Below, piece after piece: positions 11,674-49,786 of a DNA stretch of 64,000 nucleotides (its first letter is position 1; every line of letters begins with the position of its first letter). The position numbers and the translations under genes are program-made. The stretch is from Candidatus Faecousia intestinigallinarum. Its GTDB lineage: Bacteria > Bacillota > Clostridia > Oscillospirales > Oscillospiraceae. Under the pieces are notes generated by a model. The model was not told the DNA's origin. It did no database searches and saw nothing but the letters and a program-made list of their open reading frames with translations. The stretch is from the NCBI GenBank assembly GCA_018715805.1, contig DVKX01000071.1, positions 17,074 to 81,073 of the forward strand, given 5' to 3'.

Positions 11674-11722
11674 CAGCGTTCCCCTGTCGGCAGTATTACT
11701 CGAAATGACTGGAGGTGCCAAT

Positions 11723-12385
11723 ATGTGGGATATTAACGCGCTTGTGCCGCAGCTTCCTTACTGGAGCTGCCTTACCCCAGAGGAGCAAACCCTGGTAACA
11801 GAGCAGGCGCGGCTCCTTTCCTTCGCCAAGGGGCAGCCGGTTCTGTCAGGCAGCGAGTGCCTGGGCATGGTCTGGGTTGTTTCCGGCGCGATACGTTTGT
11901 ACATCCTTTCGGAAGAGGGGCGAGAGGTGACTTTATTCCGGCTGTACCAGGGGGAACCGTGTGTTTTTTCCGCTTCCTGCGTGGTGAGCCAGATCACCTT
12001 TGACACGATGATCACCGCAGAGCAGGATACCTGCCTGCTGGTGGTTCCCAGTCATGTGTTCGGGCAGATGACAGAGGAGAACCTGACTTTGCGGTGCTAT
12101 ATGTACGAACGGATGCTGGAGCGCTTCTCCGCCGTCATGTGGACCATGCAGGAGATCCTGTTCAAGGGCTTTGACCGCCGCTTGGCTGCATTCCTGGTGG
12201 GGGAATATGACCGCACCGGCAGCGTGCAGATCAGAATGACCCACCAGGAGATCGCGAAGATCACCAGCTCCGCCCGGGAGGTGGTGGCCAGGATGCTGAA
12301 GCGCTTCGAGGCCGACGGTCTGGTGGAGTACAAGCGCGGCTGCGTTACGCTGCGGGACATTCCGGCGCTCCGAACGATGCGCTGA
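11723..12385 (+). CDS. Crp/Fnr-family transcriptional regulator
   Basis: cNMP-binding-fold N-domain (SGAIRLYILSEEGREVTLFRL); C-terminal HTH MTHQEIAKITSSAREVVARMLKRF. Confidence 0.92.
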   Translation: MWDINALVPQLPYWSCLTPEEQTLVTEQARLLSFAKGQPVLSGSECLGMVWVVSGAIRLYILSEEGREVTLFRLYQGEPCVFSASCVVSQITFDTMITAEQDTCLLVVPSHVFGQMTEENLTLRCYMYERMLERFSAVMWTMQEILFKGFDRRLAAFLVGEYDRTGSVQIRMTHQEIAKITSSAREVVARMLKRFEADGLVEYKRGCVTLRDIPALRTMR

Positions 12386-12922: not shown

Positions 12923-12999
12923 GCGCCAGTAGCTCAGTTGGATAGAGCGTCCGCCTCCTAAGCGGAAGGCCGGGGATTCGAGTTCCTTCTGGCGCGCCA
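12923..12999 (+). tRNA. tRNA-Arg(CCT)
   Basis: Acceptor GCGCCAG/CTGGCGC, anticodon arm TCCGC-ctCCTaa-GCGGA, TTCGA T-loop, encoded CCA; promoter TTGACT-17-TACAAT upstream. Confidence 0.96.
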
Positions 13000-13034
13000 G
13001 GTCGGGACGAGCGATGCTCGTTCCGACTTTTTTT
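13000..13034 (+). terminator. Terminator abutting the tRNA-Arg(CCT) CCA end
   Basis: GTCGGGACGAGC-gat-GCTCGTTCCGAC-TTTTTTT. Confidence 0.85.
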
Positions 13035-13073: not shown

Positions 13074-13121
13074 GCAAAATTGCAAATTTTGCTTGACAAA
13101 TTTTGGGAGCGATGATATACT
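13074..13121 (+). promoter_or_regulatory. Strong sigmaA promoter with upstream palindrome
   Basis: TTGACA (13093-98)-17-TATACT (13116-21) with extended TG; GCAAAAT-tgcaa-ATTTTGC at 13074-13092. Confidence 0.75.
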
Positions 13122-13282
13122 AAAATTGTAATATAAAAGTGTACACCACAGAAAGACAAAGCGGAGAAATGTCCGTGAGGAGGGGATTCCCATGGCGCAC
13201 CCGGGTGGCGCGGCTGTTCCCCGGCAGCCGGCTCGGCCACGGTAAATAGGGGAAAACAACACTATTTTCAGGAGGTATTGAT

Positions 13283-13588
13283 ATGAAAAAGTCGTTTCGT
13301 GTTCTGACCATGGTTCTGGCGGTGGTGATGCTCCTGAGCAGCTTTGCGCTGTTGGCCTCTGCGGCGGAGGCGTCCCAGAAGCTGGCCTGTACCCATCCGC
13401 ACATGATGGTGGTGGAGGAGTGGCATTGCATTCCTCTTGATTCCAATTACCATCGAGATTATAGGTATTATCGGTATACCTGCCCGCTCTGCGGCTATTA
13501 CTATCTGGAATATCAGAATGATTACTCTGATTTTCGCCATTCATTTGGTCTCGATGATGTCTGCATATACTGCGGCGCTAAAAGATAA
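13283..13588 (+). CDS. Small secreted Cys/His-rich protein of unknown function
   Basis: RBS GGAGG; Sec signal MKKSFRVLTMVLAVVMLLSSFALLASA; mature part has 6 Cys including CPLCG and CIYCG, and 5 His. Confidence 0.82.
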   Translation: MKKSFRVLTMVLAVVMLLSSFALLASAAEASQKLACTHPHMMVVEEWHCIPLDSNYHRDYRYYRYTCPLCGYYYLEYQNDYSDFRHSFGLDDVCIYCGAKR

Positions 13589-13704
13589 TCGTTTAAGCGG
13601 CTGATCGCGTTTTCTTTCGCTGTGCCGTCCACTTAGCGTGGGCGGCATAGCCCTATCCATAAAACATGGCGAAAAGCGCCGTAGCAAATAAGGAGGGAAG
13701 CGGT

Positions 13705-15741
13705 ATGCACAGTATCCGGCAATTTCTTCGCCAGCCCTTGAAGCTGCTGGCGGGCATTTTGTTTATGACCCTGGGGGTGGCGCTGCTGTGCGTGGGCGTG
13801 GGGCAGAGCGTGGCGGCGCGCCAATCCCAGGCGGCCTTTGAGGAGATGTTCACCACCACCGCCGTCATGAGCGCCAAATACCAGTTCGTGGACGATACCG
13901 GCGAAGATATACTGCTTCGGGAAGTGCCGGAGGATATTCAGGCGTGGATCGACCAGTTCCTGGCGCAGCACCCGGAGCTGGTGAAGTATGTGGCGCAGCC
14001 CGGCCTGGCTTCCGCCAGGCTCCCGGAGCTGGCGATGGATAACTATACAAATTATGTTTTGGACTATGCAAGCGGCAGTATTATGGGGTTCGCGCCCACG
14101 CCGCAGGGCAGCCCCTATTCCAGCGCCGTGCTGGAAATTTCTGTTATTGGCACGAAGGATCCGGTGGTTACGGAGGATGGCGTCAGCCAGGAGATCGTGG
14201 GTACCGTGGAACGGGTGCTGGGGCTGGAGGCGGGATTCGACGACCCCACCGGCCGTACCGCCTACCTGACCTTCCGGGCTAAGAGCCTGGCGGAGCTGGA
14301 ACCCCTGTCCGCAGGGGAGCGCTGCCTGGTCTACGGTATGGATTACTATGACATGGAAGCAAGGCTGCGCGCCAAAATTTCCAAGAGAATGAACGGCGGC
14401 GTGGACATTGGCTTTGTGGATCCCAAGAACATGCACGCCACCGGCTGGGCCAAGGAGGGGAGCTGGTGGGAGCTTGACGGTGACAGCCAATATTATGTTG
14501 CAAACTATGTACTGGGCCAGGAAATTTGGGGAATGAAATGGCAAGACTACCGTGATTACCAGGCCGTCTCCATGACCCTGGAAAACCGGGGGGACTGGCC
14601 GGCGGATGGAACAGGGCTGGACGCGGAAACCTTCGCCCAGCGCTATACCGTGCCCACCCTGGTGCGTTTGGATGGCACTGCGGAGGAATTTTTAGCCACC
14701 CCGGAGGGGGCGCTCTGGCAGAGAATGCTCACGGAGATGGAGGAGAACGCCCACGCCTTCCCCATCATCGGCGTGGACGGGGCGCTGAATTATGTGGCGG
14801 AGTTTGCCCGGGGGCAGGCTTGGGTAGCCCAGGGGCGGGCCTTCACCCCGGAGGAAATGGCGTCCGGCGCCAAGGTGTGCGTGATCTCCGACATCCTGGC
14901 GGAGAAAAACGGGCTGAAGCTGGGGGATACCATCACCCCGCAGTTCTATGACAAAGACCCCCACAGCCCCTACCAGGGCTTTGTGGAGGAGGGGGAGGGA
15001 GTCGTCTATCCGGCGGCCTACCGCTATAGCCCCTACACCCCCGATGCCGGGGAGGAGACCTATACCATCATCGGCATCTATACGCAAAAACAACCTTGGA
15101 AGTGGGTGCGGAGCGGGGAGGGAGCAGCGCGTTATCAACTGTGGATATTCTCCCCCAACACCATTTTCGTCCCGGAGGCGGCGGTGCCGGTGGAGATGGC
15201 CTATGGGGACATGGGCTTCTTCTACACCCTGATCCTGGAGAACGGCGCCAAAGAGGAATTGGAGGAGCTGCAGGCCTGGGCGGGGTTTGAAGATCTGTTC
15301 CTGGTGGAAGATCAGGGGTATTCCGTATTGGCCAGCGGCCTGACGGATTACCAGGCCACAGCCGCGCTGACCCTGCGCATAGGCGTTACAGTGTACGCAG
15401 TGGTGCTGCTGCTGTTCCTGCTGCTCTACCCCGGGATGCAGGGAAAGAACCTGGCCACCATGTACTCCCTGGGCACGCCGGAGAAGCTGCGGATGCGCCA
15501 TTCCCTGCTGGACACGCTCTGCGTGCTGCTGCCGGGCACCCTCCTGGGGATCCTGGCGGGGGGGATTCTTTGGGAAAGGATCGTGGATTCCGTCCCGGCG
15601 GCAAATGCGGTGACGGAGGCGTTCCGGCTGAATCCCTGGCTGCTGCTTGGCCTGGGAGCGGCGCAGTTCGTCCTGTCCCTGGGGGCGGCGGCAGTCCTGG
15701 GCTGGTGGATGAGCCGGGACAAGAGAGCGGGAAGGAGGTAG
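13705..15741 (+). CDS. MacB/FtsX-like ABC transporter permease (large extracellular domain)
   Basis: N-terminal TM, MacB-type periplasmic motif GRAFTPEEMASGAKVCVISDILAEKNGLKLGDTI, C-terminal TM bundle with ATMYSLGT; RBS AAGGAGGG. Confidence 0.8.
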   Translation: MHSIRQFLRQPLKLLAGILFMTLGVALLCVGVGQSVAARQSQAAFEEMFTTTAVMSAKYQFVDDTGEDILLREVPEDIQAWIDQFLAQHPELVKYVAQPGLASARLPELAMDNYTNYVLDYASGSIMGFAPTPQGSPYSSAVLEISVIGTKDPVVTEDGVSQEIVGTVERVLGLEAGFDDPTGRTAYLTFRAKSLAELEPLSAGERCLVYGMDYYDMEARLRAKISKRMNGGVDIGFVDPKNMHATGWAKEGSWWELDGDSQYYVANYVLGQEIWGMKWQDYRDYQAVSMTLENRGDWPADGTGLDAETFAQRYTVPTLVRLDGTAEEFLATPEGALWQRMLTEMEENAHAFPIIGVDGALNYVAEFARGQAWVAQGRAFTPEEMASGAKVCVISDILAEKNGLKLGDTITPQFYDKDPHSPYQGFVEEGEGVVYPAAYRYSPYTPDAGEETYTIIGIYTQKQPWKWVRSGEGAARYQLWIFSPNTIFVPEAAVPVEMAYGDMGFFYTLILENGAKEELEELQAWAGFEDLFLVEDQGYSVLASGLTDYQATAALTLRIGVTVYAVVLLLFLLLYPGMQGKNLATMYSLGTPEKLRMRHSLLDTLCVLLPGTLLGILAGGILWERIVDSVPAANAVTEAFRLNPWLLLGLGAAQFVLSLGAAAVLGWWMSRDKRAGRR

Positions 15742-15745
15742 GCGT

Positions 15746-16993
15746 ATGTGGATGCACCTATGGAGAAGAATTACCCGGAAGCCCCTGCCGCTGCTGGCCG
15801 TTGCAGCCTTCGCGGCGGCGATCACCCTGGCGCTGTGCGCCCTTCACGCCAATAATGTGGCGGAGGAGGCGGCCTACCTGGAGAGCCGCGCCAAGGTGGA
15901 GGTGCCCTTCGCGGTGACCAACCTGGCCGGCAGCCAGTCTCAGGATATTATGATTCCCGGCTTCCTGGCGGACGCTTTCGCCGGGCAGGGGGACGGGCGC
16001 CCCCTGCTGGACGGGTATGTTTCCCAGCTGCAGATCCTGCAGACCTATTCGGTGAACAGCTCGAAGGACGGAGTGCTGGACGGCTTCCGGATGTGCGGCA
16101 TTCTGGATCTGAAATCCGACCGCCTCATCTCCCCCAATGCCGGCGGGGAGATCGAGTGGTATCCCGGCTACGATGAGAGCGTTTTCCAGACCGGCGAGCT
16201 GGTATGTATCGTGCCGAAGCAGCTGGCGGAGGAGGGCGTGCTGCCCGAGGACGGGGTGCTGGAGCTTACATTTGTGGGGGAAACCACGCCCCCGAACCCA
16301 CCCAACAAGATCACCCGGGAGTTTACCGTGGTGGGGCTGTTCTCCAATGATAAGATCGCCGTGGACGGCGCGAAAATCTGGAAGGCCTATTGCCCCTACC
16401 GAACCATGCGGCAGATCTATCTGGATTTGAGCATCATCTATGAAAAACGCACTGTCGATGTGATTCGCGGTGTGCTGCGGGACAACGACCAGCTGGAGGA
16501 ATTCCGAAAGGCTGCCAACGAGTGGATGCCCAACGCCGAGCCGGACGCCCAGCCCTGGGAATACGAAACGGTGGGCTATTACTTCACGGAGTTTTACTTT
16601 GCCATCGACATTGACGACTCCCTGCTCCAGAGCCTGACCAACAGCTACCAGAACAGCATGGCCATCAACCGGCTGTCCCTGCTGCTGGTGTTCGCGCTGT
16701 CCGCCGGGGCGGGGTTCCTGGTGGGCTTCCTGATGATCCGGAGCCGGAAGCGGGAGATCGGCCAGCTGCGCACTCTGGGGACGCCGGGGGCGATGATCTA
16801 CATAAGCTATGCCCTGGAGCAGATGGCGGCCATTGCCGTGGGCATCGGGGTGGGGGGCGCATTCTTCCGCTATGAACCCGTTGCCTGGCTGGCGCTGTTT
16901 GCTGGTATCTATTTTGTGGGCTTGAGCGCCGCACTGCTGATTTTCCTGCGCAGGAATCTGCTGGCATCTATGAAAGAGGAGGAGACATCATGA
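15746..16993 (+). CDS. FtsX-like ABC transporter permease
   Basis: N-terminal TM, extracellular domain, FtsX signature RSRKREIGQLRTLGT, C-terminal TMs. Confidence 0.85.
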   Translation: MWMHLWRRITRKPLPLLAVAAFAAAITLALCALHANNVAEEAAYLESRAKVEVPFAVTNLAGSQSQDIMIPGFLADAFAGQGDGRPLLDGYVSQLQILQTYSVNSSKDGVLDGFRMCGILDLKSDRLISPNAGGEIEWYPGYDESVFQTGELVCIVPKQLAEEGVLPEDGVLELTFVGETTPPNPPNKITREFTVVGLFSNDKIAVDGAKIWKAYCPYRTMRQIYLDLSIIYEKRTVDVIRGVLRDNDQLEEFRKAANEWMPNAEPDAQPWEYETVGYYFTEFYFAIDIDDSLLQSLTNSYQNSMAINRLSLLLVFALSAGAGFLVGFLMIRSRKREIGQLRTLGTPGAMIYISYALEQMAAIAVGIGVGGAFFRYEPVAWLALFAGIYFVGLSAALLIFLRRNLLASMKEEETS

Positions 16994-17649
16994 GCATTGT
17001 ATTGCAGGACGCGTCCTACAGCTATCAGGGAAAGTACCAGACGGTGCGCGCCGTGGATGGGGTTTCCTATGCCTTTGAATACGGGAAGCTCTATGCCATT
17101 GTGGGAAAATCCGGCTCGGGCAAGACCACGCTGCTCTCGCTGATGGCAGGGTTAGATTTGCCCACAGAGGGAGAAATTCTGGTGGAGGGGAAATCCACCC
17201 GGGAATGGGATCGGAACGCCCTGCGCCGGGACGCAGTGTCCGTGATCTATCAGAACTATAACCTTTTCCCCTTGCTGACGGTCAGCGAGAACATCCAATA
17301 TCCCCTGACCCTAAAGAAGACGCCGAAGAAAGAGGCCAAGGAGCTGGCGAAGAAAATGCGGGAGCGGGTGGAGCTGCCGGAGAGCTATGACAACCGCCTG
17401 CCCAGTCACCTGTCCGGCGGCGAGCAGCAGCGGGTGGCCATTGCCCGGGCGCTGGCGCAGGGATGCAAAATCATTTTGGCGGATGAGCCAACAGGCAATT
17501 TGGATACGGCCAATACACAGAACATTGTGCGTATCCTCCGCGACCTTGCCCATGAGGATGCGTGCACGGTGATCATTGTGACGCATGATACCGCAGTTGC
17601 CGACCAGGCGGACGAGGTTTTGCAGATGAAAGACGGCCGTTGGGTGTAA
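16990..17649 (+). CDS. ABC transporter ATP-binding protein (LolD/MacB-like)
   Basis: GKSGSGKTT, LSGGEQQRVAIARAL, ADEPTGNLD, VTHD; ATGA overlap with the permease. Confidence 0.95.
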   Translation: MSIVLQDASYSYQGKYQTVRAVDGVSYAFEYGKLYAIVGKSGSGKTTLLSLMAGLDLPTEGEILVEGKSTREWDRNALRRDAVSVIYQNYNLFPLLTVSENIQYPLTLKKTPKKEAKELAKKMRERVELPESYDNRLPSHLSGGEQQRVAIARALAQGCKIILADEPTGNLDTANTQNIVRILRDLAHEDACTVIIVTHDTAVADQADEVLQMKDGRWV

Positions 17650-17671
17650 ATGCGGAATAAATGAAATTTTG

Positions 17672-17705
17672 GAAAAGCCCGGGGTTCGCAGACCCCGGGC
17701 TTTTC
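17672..17705. terminator. Bidirectional terminator
   Basis: GAAAAGCCCGGGGT-tcgcag-ACCCCGGGCTTTTC. Confidence 0.85.
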
Positions 17706-17712
17706 AGACGCC

Positions 17713-17746
17713 AAAAGGCCGGAGCAAGGCAAGCCTTGCTCCGGCC
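17713..17746 (-). terminator. Terminator abutting the tRNA-Arg(ACG) CCA end
   Basis: 13-bp stem GGCCGGAGCAAGG/CCTTGCTCCGGCC followed by TTTT on the minus strand. Confidence 0.8.
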
Positions 17747-17823
17747 TGGTACGCTGGAAGGGACTCGAACCCCCGACCTACTGATTCGTAGTCAGTCACT
17801 CTATCCAACTGAGCTACCAGCGC
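17747..17823 (-). tRNA. tRNA-Arg(ACG)
   Basis: Reverse complement GCGCTGGTAGCTCAGTTGGATAGAGTG-ACTGA-ctACGaa-TCAGT-AGGTCGGGGGTTCGAGTCCCTT-CCAGCGT-A-CCA. Confidence 0.96.
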
Positions 17824-49075: not shown

Positions 49076-49786
49076 TTATGCGCAGCTGGTCTGGCGGATC
49101 AGTTCTTTGCGCAGCCGGAGCATAATACGCTTTTCCAGCCGGGAAATGTAGGACTGGGAAATGCCCATTTTCTGCGCTACTTCCTTCTGGGTCAGTTCCT
49201 GCCGCCCGCCCAGGCCAAAGCGCATGGTGATGATCTCCCGTTCCCGCTCCGGCAGCTCTCGCACCGCTTGCCGCAGGAGACAGAGGTCTACATCGTCCTC
49301 CAGGGGACGGAGGATCATGTCTTCTTCGGTGCCAAGAATATCCGAGAGAAGCAGCTCGTTGCCATCGTAATCCATATTGATGGGTTCATCCAGCGAAACT
49401 TCCGTTTTTTGGTTGGCAATTTTGCGGATATGCATTAGAATCTCGTTTTCAATGCAGCGGGAGGCGTAAGTAGCCAGCTTGATGTTTTTGTCCCGGCGGT
49501 AGGTGCCGATGGCTTTGATGAGGCCGATGGTGCCGATGGAGATCAAGTCCTCCAGATTTACGCCGGTATTTTCAAACCGCCGGGCGATGAACACCACCAG
49601 GCGCAGGTTCCGCTCAATGAGCGTTTGTTTTGCCGCCTCCTCGCCGTTTTCCAGCCGCTGGAGCATTTCCTGCTCCTCCTGCCCTTTCAGCGGCGGAGGA
49701 AGAATATCGCTGCCCCCAATATAGTAGATTCCTTGACGCTGGCGCAGCATCCACTTCCGCAGCCATTCCCAGAATTTTTCCATCAT
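49076..49786 (-). CDS. sigE: Pro-sigmaE, mother-cell RNA polymerase sigma factor
   Basis: [52 protein letters not shown]; start 49786 after GGAGG, ATGA-coupled to spoIIGA. Confidence 0.96.

Follow-up and report, generated by a model that had tools for sequence, protein, structure and literature searches.

A rare, predicted secreted miniprotein as the probable partner of a type VII ABC transporter in gut Clostridia

What is a small Cys/His-rich protein with a Sec signal doing in one operon with two large permeases and an ATPase of the ATP-binding cassette (ABC) type? The question is raised by a 64,000-nucleotide stretch of Candidatus Faecousia intestinigallinarum (contig DVKX01000071.1, positions 17,074 to 81,073; the whole stretch is called the window here), in which a four-gene unit on the + strand, 13093-17704 from promoter to terminator, is flanked by two convergent tRNA-Arg genes. 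We named the four genes, all on the + strand, MP (the miniprotein), PermL, PermS and ATPase, and give coordinates in the numbering of the window unless a locus number (L) precedes them. We propose that MP is probably a dedicated extracytoplasmic partner or client of the transporter. By analogy with known systems, it may more specifically be a bacteriocin-like effector, with the type VII ABC as its cognate handling and immunity machine, a reading to which we give a probability of about 0.4. The unit and its boundaries are as follows.

12923-12999, + strand: tRNA-Arg(CCT), which has a separate terminator (12999-13029); left boundary of the unit
13093-13121, + strand: sigma-70-type promoter, TTGACA-17 nt-TG-n-TATACT, extended -10; 11/12 consensus positions plus TG
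13283-13588, + strand: MP, 101 residues; ribosome-binding site AGGAGG at 13270-13275; signal peptide 13283-13363; mature part 13364-13585
13619-13651, + strand: stem-loop in the MP-PermL spacer, 14 bp, GC-rich, GCUGUGCCGUCCAC-UUAGC-GUGGGCGGCAUAGC, no U tract
13705-15741 (longest open reading frame from 13666), + strand: PermL, large type VII ABC permease, 678 residues
15746-16993, + strand: PermS, smaller FtsX-like permease, 415 residues
16990-17649, + strand: ATPase, LolD/MacB-type ABC ATPase, 219 residues
17673-17704, + strand: operon terminator, 8-bp all-GC stem, 8-nt loop, UUUU; AAAA flank
17747-17823, - strand: tRNA-Arg(ACG), convergent; right boundary of the unit

A preliminary description of this DNA had proposed the same order of genes (a Sec-dependent miniprotein, two different permeases, one LolD-like ATPase), the location between the convergent tRNA-Arg(CCT) and tRNA-Arg(ACG) genes, and a 101-residue Sec-signal protein with C-x-H, WHC, CPLCG, H and CIYCG motifs and a Tyr tract. 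The open reading frames (ORFs) and tRNA genes agree with it on all these points. MP begins with a signal peptide of the n/h/c type, with a cleavage site between ASA and A after residue 27, which leaves a mature protein of 74 residues containing CTH, WHC, CPLCG, H86, CIYCG and 11 Tyr. As can be seen from an alignment of nine sequences, C36, H57, C67, C70, H86, C94, C97 and G98 are invariant across the family and a C-x-H or C-x4-H arrangement at the first Cys is conserved (H38 in the window protein); C49 and the 'WHC' of the window protein are not conserved. Apart from a near-identical copy, P0001, family members are only 21-28% identical to the window protein. Within the species, residues 36-101 are identical in 27 contigs, with differences at residue 14 and residues 33-35 only; this constancy of the folded core shows that the MP gene is real.

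Neither MP nor its family members matched any Pfam or NCBIfam family, zinc-ribbon Pfam models scored far below their cut-offs, and the bacteriocin models of both libraries gave zero matches for MP or family members at E ≤ 1 or ≤ 0.1. The window MP had no PADLOC match; membership of the locus in a defence system was considered and rejected, since PADLOC returned generic ATPase matches only. The preliminary description had not recognised the family, and indeed no characterised family was found with Pfam, NCBIfam, a PDB profile search or Foldseek. The literature searched holds no description of the MP family or of the combination of the transporter with agr genes (see below). As judged from these sequence comparisons, the MP family is unannotated, very rare and undescribed in the libraries and literature searched.

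We analysed where MP relatives are encoded. A single-sequence, word-indexed search of 5.8 billion proteins gave one match only, a 98% identical copy. Further relatives were recovered from the neighbourhoods of PermL homologues and then used as a profile query, which yielded eight clusters in total from the 5.8 billion proteins. All eight have a PermL homologue as the next gene downstream, and with hosts among the Oscillospiraceae and an Acetatifactor metagenome-assembled genome they span at least two families of Clostridia (window, L001, L004, L007/L014, L010, L017/L021, L022, L026, L027, L006 and P0084). At L006 the MP gene is located between two PermL paralogues, ahead of the second, and the fragment downstream of P0084 opens with the PermL N-terminal consensus. 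The outcome that the preliminary description had named as contrary to its proposal, homologues without linkage to such transporters, was thus not found. An exhaustive HMMER scan of 1.8 billion representatives revealed no stand-alone MP homologue in any other context. It could be argued that an unrelated small secreted protein merely happens to precede an ordinary detoxification ABC. Such adjacency without function is contradicted by the linkage in eight independent clusters of at least two Clostridia families, by MP subtypes congruent with PermL, and by the lack of stand-alone MP homologues elsewhere among the 1.8 billion representatives; we consider it extremely improbable.

The MP subtype C-P-G-G-x-H / C-x-C-G (L006, L007, L022, L026, P0084) corresponds to one PermL clade, and the subtype C-x-H / C-x2-C-G to other PermL branches. 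In a neighbour-joining tree of PermL the MP-linked genes occupy several deep branches, the subtypes nonetheless following the PermL clades. This pattern fits long co-inheritance with repeated loss of MP, not swapping of unrelated cargo. The preliminary description had suspected a swappable cargo gene; the fact that the subtypes track PermL clades argues against this, and the conserved transporter is paired either with the same MP family or with no small secreted gene. The related idea of a hypervariable cargo was rejected, as no signal-peptide ORF with three or more Cys was found next to the transporter genes when all loci were screened. The sole other Cys-rich signal-peptide ORF (167 residues, L012 11342-11956) lies ~1 kb past the L012 ATPase. 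In MP-less loci, the family hidden Markov model (HMM) detected no divergent or degraded MP at E < 0.1 among six-frame ORFs of at least 30 residues.

The preliminary description had assigned the three downstream genes to FtsX/MacB-type permeases and a LolD-like ATPase, and the predicted structures and natural fusions described below support both the type VII fold and the pairing. According to hydropathy, PermL has one transmembrane (TM) helix at 14-32, an ectodomain of ~520 residues and three further helices (555-573, 604-622, 646-664); the helices of an AlphaFold2 model (32-sequence alignment; predicted local distance difference test (pLDDT) 84.7) agree. PermL scored 32.4 bits against Pfam MacB_PCD (cut-off 27) and 22.9 bits against FtsX (below 25.5). 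Searching the PDB by sequence gave almost nothing for either permease, apart from a weak match of PermS to PsdB, and PermL was placed by fold comparison only: Foldseek matched it to LolC/LolE, MacB, pneumococcal Spr0694-0695, YbbP, HrtB and YtrF (probability 1.0, E 5e-8 to 1e-4), LolC and LolE being the best (E 5e-8). PermS (TM 14-32, ectodomain of ~280 residues, TM 313-331, a weaker helix and TM 382-400) reached only 19.4 bits against FtsX, below the 25.5 cut-off, and was assigned as a type VII permease from its topology, operon position and fusion proteins. The ATPase has intact motifs (Walker A GKSGSGKT, signature LSGGE, Walker B IILADEP, H-loop) and matched ABC_tran at 4e-36; its best NCBIfam models were LolD, L_ocin_972_ABC, DevA, FtsE and MacB, all below equivalog cut-offs.

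The genes follow one another as PermL-PermS-ATPase in each of more than 12 loci and, in seven database clusters, PermL and PermS are fused in one chain; because of these natural fusions and the conserved gene order, two permeases acting together as a heterodimer are supported. All features of type VII ABCs that we looked for are present: TM1-ectodomain-three TM topology, a MacB core/FtsX bundle, and a LolD/MacB/FtsE-type nucleotide-binding domain (NBD) with intact motifs. We thus classify the transporter, from sequence and predicted structure, as a genuine member of the type VII ABCs, with a heterodimeric stoichiometry like that of LolCDE and in a subfamily undescribed in the libraries and literature searched. 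Type VII ABCs use ATP-driven movements of their ectodomains to act on substrates at the outer face and are not importers (PMC5985334). While the ATPase is ~80% identical across loci, the permeases of the same loci are only 30-46% identical, as would be expected if their ectodomains track a diverging client. On the contig JAJQHS010000025.1 (L005, L006), at least four PermL paralogues occur in tandem systems, with two type-I-like ABC exporter genes upstream in L006.

We next consider the relative expression of MP and its transporter. In all eight MP loci examined, the MP-PermL spacer (46-165 nt) contains a GC-rich hairpin of 10-15 bp, usually without a U tract. The window spacer has a minimum free energy of -47.2 kcal/mol (z = -3.41; 1/200 shuffles equally stable), and in the minimum-free-energy fold a U/C-rich run (13610-13618) pairs, around the main hairpin, with the PermL Shine-Dalgarno sequence (13690-13697), suggesting translational damping of the transporter genes. 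A strong hairpin after the first small gene is typical of operons that express that gene in excess. The spacer hairpin may therefore be an attenuator or an mRNA-stabilizing element that gives an excess of MP over the transporter; such a design speaks for MP as a product or client and against a stoichiometric subunit.

Promoters point the same way in part of the family and add a second theme, quorum sensing, in another. Near-consensus extended -10 promoters precede MP in five loci (window, L004, L006, L010, L017). In L022, L026 and L027 (and L007, by similarity), the MP operon is preceded by a gene for an XRE-type regulator and a divergent, complete agr cassette.

L026 148-3109; L022 1702-4661; L027: agr cassette (AgrB, 58-residue AgrD-like ORF, AgrC-type kinase, LytTR regulator), divergent from the XRE gene
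L007 5240-5442; L022 5155-5357; L023 475-677; L026 3602-3804: conserved regions upstream of MP

The AgrD-like 58-residue ORFs share the motif YEWPPSC[LI][VF]F[TS]YQP. The MP upstream region of this clade is conserved (82% mean column identity), lacks a consensus -35, and carries GTG(C)AAT-like half-sites ~21 bp apart and a perfect AAGAAGCTTCTT palindrome in the leader, which is consistent with activator control of the promoter. An adjacent agrBDCA with a LytTR-type promoter is thus found in the L007/L022/L026/L027 clade and is missing from the window.

A related regulatory pair accompanies transporters that have no MP. In five such loci (L002b, L003, L012, L028, L030) a LytTR regulator and a HATPase_c_5 kinase are encoded directly upstream of PermL and in the same direction, and the kinase of this clade is 50% identical, over 205 residues, to AgrC of the agr-linked MP loci.

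L002 3990-9977; L003 3990-9973; L012 4035-10285; L028 3007-8984; L030 978-6269: LytTR-AgrC-type kinase-PermL-PermS-ATPase modules, without MP, AgrB or AgrD

Since AgrC-type kinases and LytTR regulators are peptide-sensing systems, and are linked to the transporter family both with and without MP, it is conceivable that MP itself is a secreted pheromone-like signal, with the orphan AgrCA-type kinases as possible sensors and the transporter only aiding release. The agr-linked loci, however, already encode an AgrD-like autoinducer precursor of their own, a folded protein of 74-108 residues is far above the size of known AgrC ligands, and there is no such kinase within the 64 kb of the window organism, which makes a signalling role very improbable.

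What would MP look like outside the cell? An AlphaFold2 model built from nine sequences (pLDDT 85.9) has three long antiparallel β-strands. Foldseek found no fold match for it in the PDB (best E 0.69, TM-score ≤ 0.45); the top, non-significant entries include elongated G5/E-repeat sheets. From the strand order, two tetrahedral metal sites (probably Zn) may be placed one at each end of the sheet: site 1 would consist of C36/H38 and the C67-x2-C70 knuckle, and site 2 of H57/H86 and the C94-x2-C97 knuckle. We prefer metal binding to disulfides because the histidines are invariant. The sequences contain two C-x2-C-type knuckles with further conserved ligands, as zinc knuckles do, and fit no curated zinc-ribbon family or known zinc-ribbon fold; the family profile matched C2H2 zinc fingers in the PDB weakly (6.7e-5 over 23 residues, the Y-x-C-x2-C...H segment). 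To our knowledge, stabilization of secreted bacterial proteins by zinc-knuckle-like sites is unusual. Four of the eight members (P0080, P0081, P0084, P0085) are longer and carry, after the signal peptide, an extra tail with the motif [EV]-H-E-H-x3-C-C (SEHTDEC in P0084), which is missing from the window MP and could supply extra metal ligands.

The eight conserved Cys/His positions, these tails, the weak C2H2 match and the sub-threshold zinc-ribbon scores are what would be expected if MP were an extracellular metal buffer, chaperone or scavenger that the ABC loads, unloads or recycles. Yet in the model the ligands would fit structural staples at the ends of the sheet, and neither a substrate-binding protein nor an importer-type permease nor a metal regulator is encoded at the locus. 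Import is not a function of type VII ABCs (PMC5985334), and control by agr suits a social trait better than metal homeostasis. We therefore regard metal handling as improbable.

The exhaustive HMMER scan also revealed where the MP module occurs outside the stand-alone form. Besides the near-identical copy, it found two real relatives, the large secreted proteins P0074 (1092 residues; E 5e-8) and P0077 (885 residues, with a YkuD, L,D-transpeptidase, domain; E 7e-6), while three further matches were dismissed as compositional (Tyr-rich). Residues ~340-715 of P0074 and ~400-870 of P0077 consist of 6-8 tandem copies of ~62 residues each with the pattern H-x-H...W..H...C-x-C-G...C-x-F...Y-T-C-x2-C-G-Y, for which neither Pfam nor NCBIfam has a model. 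Each of these copies can be aligned with the MP family HMM, from C-x2-C via H to C-x-C-G; in a test of five sequences, the full-sequence E for P0077 was 1e-19. The aligned part of MP is its C-terminal two-thirds, Y-x-C-x2-C-G through H to C-x(1,2)-C-G, a segment that MP and the repeats share. The arrangements differ: the repeats are found in large multidomain proteins with no known link to an ABC, whereas MP stands alone with a signal peptide. By this comparison MP is the stand-alone form, of about 1.5 units, of an unannotated extracellular Cys/His module.

How could these elements work together? In the mechanism that we favour, the four genes would constitute one functional module. A strong promoter would drive MP, which would leave the cell by the Sec route, be freed by signal peptidase I and fold outside into a three-stranded antiparallel β-sheet with a metal site, probably Zn, clamping each end. 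One PermL, one PermS and two copies of the ATPase would form a LolCDE-like machine that does not move its substrate across the membrane. The conserved hairpin and the spacer that sequesters the Shine-Dalgarno sequence would keep MP in excess over the transporter, whose ectodomains would recognize MP and push it off the membrane and wall zone of the producer, thereby achieving release and self-protection in one step. MP would be constitutive in the window organism and quorum-controlled through agr in one related clade, and the MP-less relatives with an AgrCA-type two-component system upstream would be inducible resistance modules of non-producers. The strict linkage, the co-divergence, the fast-evolving ectodomains, the design for excess expression, the agr control in one clade and the orphan transporters coupled to two-component systems fit together, and we read them as signs of a secreted effector with a cognate handling and immunity transporter in producers and of inducible resistance modules in non-producers.

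Several observations weigh against an effector with its immunity pump. Mature MPs are acidic (net charge -2 to -13, pI 4.4-6.3), unlike typical peptide bacteriocins, which are cationic. In P0074 and P0077 the module looks structural, not like a toxin. Among the ~20 PermL genes with enough upstream DNA, 12 (~60%) have no MP, so the transporter can evidently work without it in most relatives, and the nearest PermL relatives of the window (L002b, L003, L028, L030; 43-46% identity), as well as the more distant L012, belong to this MP-less group. No AgrB, AgrC or LytTR homologue was found in the 64-kb window. The RNA evidence bearing on co-transcription consists of one contig of 209 nt (13184-13392) from a putative RNA run; the other runs look like DNA.

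Some of the same evidence brings in a serious rival, namely that MP is an accessory or regulatory extracytoplasmic subunit, which sits on the PermL/PermS ectodomains and tunes their action on another substrate (an antimicrobial peptide, a lipid-linked molecule or a wall component). Parallels for such docking are PcsB, EnvC and CwlO on FtsEX, and adaptors on MacB. A subunit of this kind would account for the strict adjacency and co-divergence of MP and PermL and for the acidic, non-amphipathic, β-rich nature of MPs and their relation to structural repeats of surface proteins; the AgrCA-type two-component system that takes the upstream position of MP where MP is missing is consistent with alternative control inputs. 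The conserved hairpin and the very strong promoters, however, suggest a large molar excess of MP, most members of the transporter family work without MP, and quorum-sensing control of a subunit would be unusual. On balance we find this alternative somewhat unlikely.

The effector reading can be pushed further, to a claim that we find unlikely as a whole. MPs might represent a new class of ribosomal, unmodified, double-zinc-knuckle extracellular miniproteins, with a fold absent from the PDB, that act as interbacterial effectors in gut Clostridia; an undescribed heterodimeric type VII ABC might recognize and expel them by mechanotransmission, and the same transporter with an orphan AgrCA-type sensor might give non-producers inducible resistance, in an arms race of producers and eavesdroppers.

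We compared the locus with known systems. The preliminary description had likened it to lactococcin-972 loci, which is fair as an analogy of architecture; the locus is not a member of that family, in view of the precursor, the NBD score and the permease type. In plasmid pBL1 of Lactococcus lactis the structural gene lcn972 is followed by the ABC immunity genes orf2-orf3 (PMC4055356). Both loci begin with the gene of a small, Sec-dependent, unmodified, β-rich secreted protein, followed by permease and ABC ATPase genes; in the Lcn972 locus the latter give immunity (PMC4055356), the role that we propose here. On the Lcn972-type NBD model the score of the window ATPase comes close to that on LolD, at 198.4 bits against TIGR03608 (L_ocin_972_ABC), below the cut-off of 254.85. 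MP, in contrast, has no sequence similarity to Lcn972 and is acidic and Cys/His-rich, and in place of the single 7-TM DUF1430-type permease of the Lcn972 locus the window encodes a pair of MacB-type permeases, each of 4 TM helices and with a huge ectodomain; neither permease matched the 7-TM bacteriocin-associated permease model.

MacAB-TolC of E. coli exports STII, a Sec-delivered, signal-cleaved, Cys-rich enterotoxin (PMC5985334). The window shares with it the MacB fold (in PermL) and a small Cys-rich, Sec-delivered protein, but has no MacA adaptor, TolC or outer membrane, its permeases are heterodimeric with separate NBDs, and STII is disulfide-bonded and unrelated in sequence. Two different 4-TM permeases with one ATPase gene, as well as the best Foldseek matches, recall LolCDE. 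Lol, however, is a Gram-negative system for lipoproteins, with ectodomains of ~200 residues against ~520 and ~280 here, while the cleavage site of MP is that of type I signal peptidase and a lipobox is missing. Among Firmicutes, FtsX/MacB-type detoxification ABCs guard against secreted peptides, often beside a sensing two-component system and with orphan copies in non-producers; YknXYZ, which protects from SDP, AS-48EFGH and BceAB are type VII examples (PMC5985334). The MP-less relatives of the window transporter resemble BceAB-BceRS-type modules in having a two-component system directly upstream. They differ in that BceB is a single 10-TM chain with OmpR-type regulators, whereas the present family has a pair of 4-TM chains, fused to 8 TM in some members, and a linked system of the AgrCA/LytTR type. 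In the window itself there is neither a 10-TM permease with an ectodomain between TM7 and TM8 nor an adjacent OmpR-type or any other two-component system. In the libraries and literature searched there is no description of the MP family, of the fold predicted for it, of the tandem repeat related to it or of the transporter subfamily; the layout resembles the known Lcn972, AS-48 and STII-MacB arrangements.

Most small proteins secreted by uncultured gut anaerobes lack annotation; MP has an unusually clean genomic signature, making its function testable. If MP is an effector and the transporter its immunity pump, the Oscillospiraceae of the poultry gut would have yielded a bacteriocin class that is new and structurally distinct, and a type VII ABC of Gram-positive bacteria would be matched with a natural protein client, useful for the study of mechanotransmission. 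If the subunit reading is the right one, MacB-like machines would gain in MP an ectodomain partner of a new kind. The module is of wider interest because it is also repeated in large surface proteins, which are likewise unannotated.

The AT-richness of the 3' half of MP, pointed out in the preliminary description, is real: the G+C content at third codon positions (GC3) is 0.42 over the last 50 MP codons, versus 0.72-0.81 in six neighbouring genes. An explanation by amino-acid composition alone was rejected, since GC3, which reflects synonymous sites, is low too. In every host (window, L004, L006, L007, L010, L017, L022, L026) MP GC3 is 0.40-0.59, with GC3 of the adjacent PermL or host at 0.47-0.79. 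A foreign origin of the gene is only weakly indicated, because MP GC3 stays in this range whatever the GC3 of the host; exchange between hosts or a constraint at the mRNA level could be responsible. Only one other contig has the tRNA-flanked context (L001, same species), and DNA sequencing runs place the organism in chicken-gut metagenomes.

The boundaries of the transcription unit were examined at the level of individual signals. The preliminary description had placed a perfect promoter at 13093; a promoter is there (TTGACA-17-TATACT, with TG), and at 11 of 12 positions it falls short of perfection. Transcription would start at ~13128. A gap of 4 nt separates PermL from PermS, whose stop codon lies within a 4-nt overlap with the start of ATPase (ATGA). 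PermL has an upstream in-frame ATG at 13666 besides the ATG at 13705; the latter is the more likely start, because it has a strong Shine-Dalgarno sequence (AAGGAGGG, 13690-13697) and gives the 678-residue form found in databases (P0002). The terminator that had been noted at 17672 was confirmed as a hairpin with UUUU at 17673-17704; read directly from the sequence, the hairpin plus TTTT is GCCCGGGG-N8-CCCCGGGC at 17677-17704. The simple terminator scanner demands at least five T and hence did not list it. Another hairpin, at 17717-17746, is the terminator of the convergent tRNA-Arg(ACG), not of the MP operon.

A riboswitch or other leader element in the 155-nt 5' untranslated region of MP was rejected, as there was no Rfam match and the fold was no more stable than that of shuffled sequences (z = +0.40). 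The sole match in the window to the AgrC-type kinase query, on the - strand at 49280-49672, is marginal (E 0.009) and probably an unrelated histidine kinase. Abutting the -35 element of the MP promoter is a perfect 7-bp inverted repeat (13074-13092, GCAAAAT-TGCAA-ATTTTGC), and at the same position before TTGACA L004 has CTGCAAAAT-ATGG-ATTTTTTC; such a repeat could be an operator or merely an UP-like A/T element. A gene for a Crp/Fnr-family regulator is located nearby, at 11705-12385.

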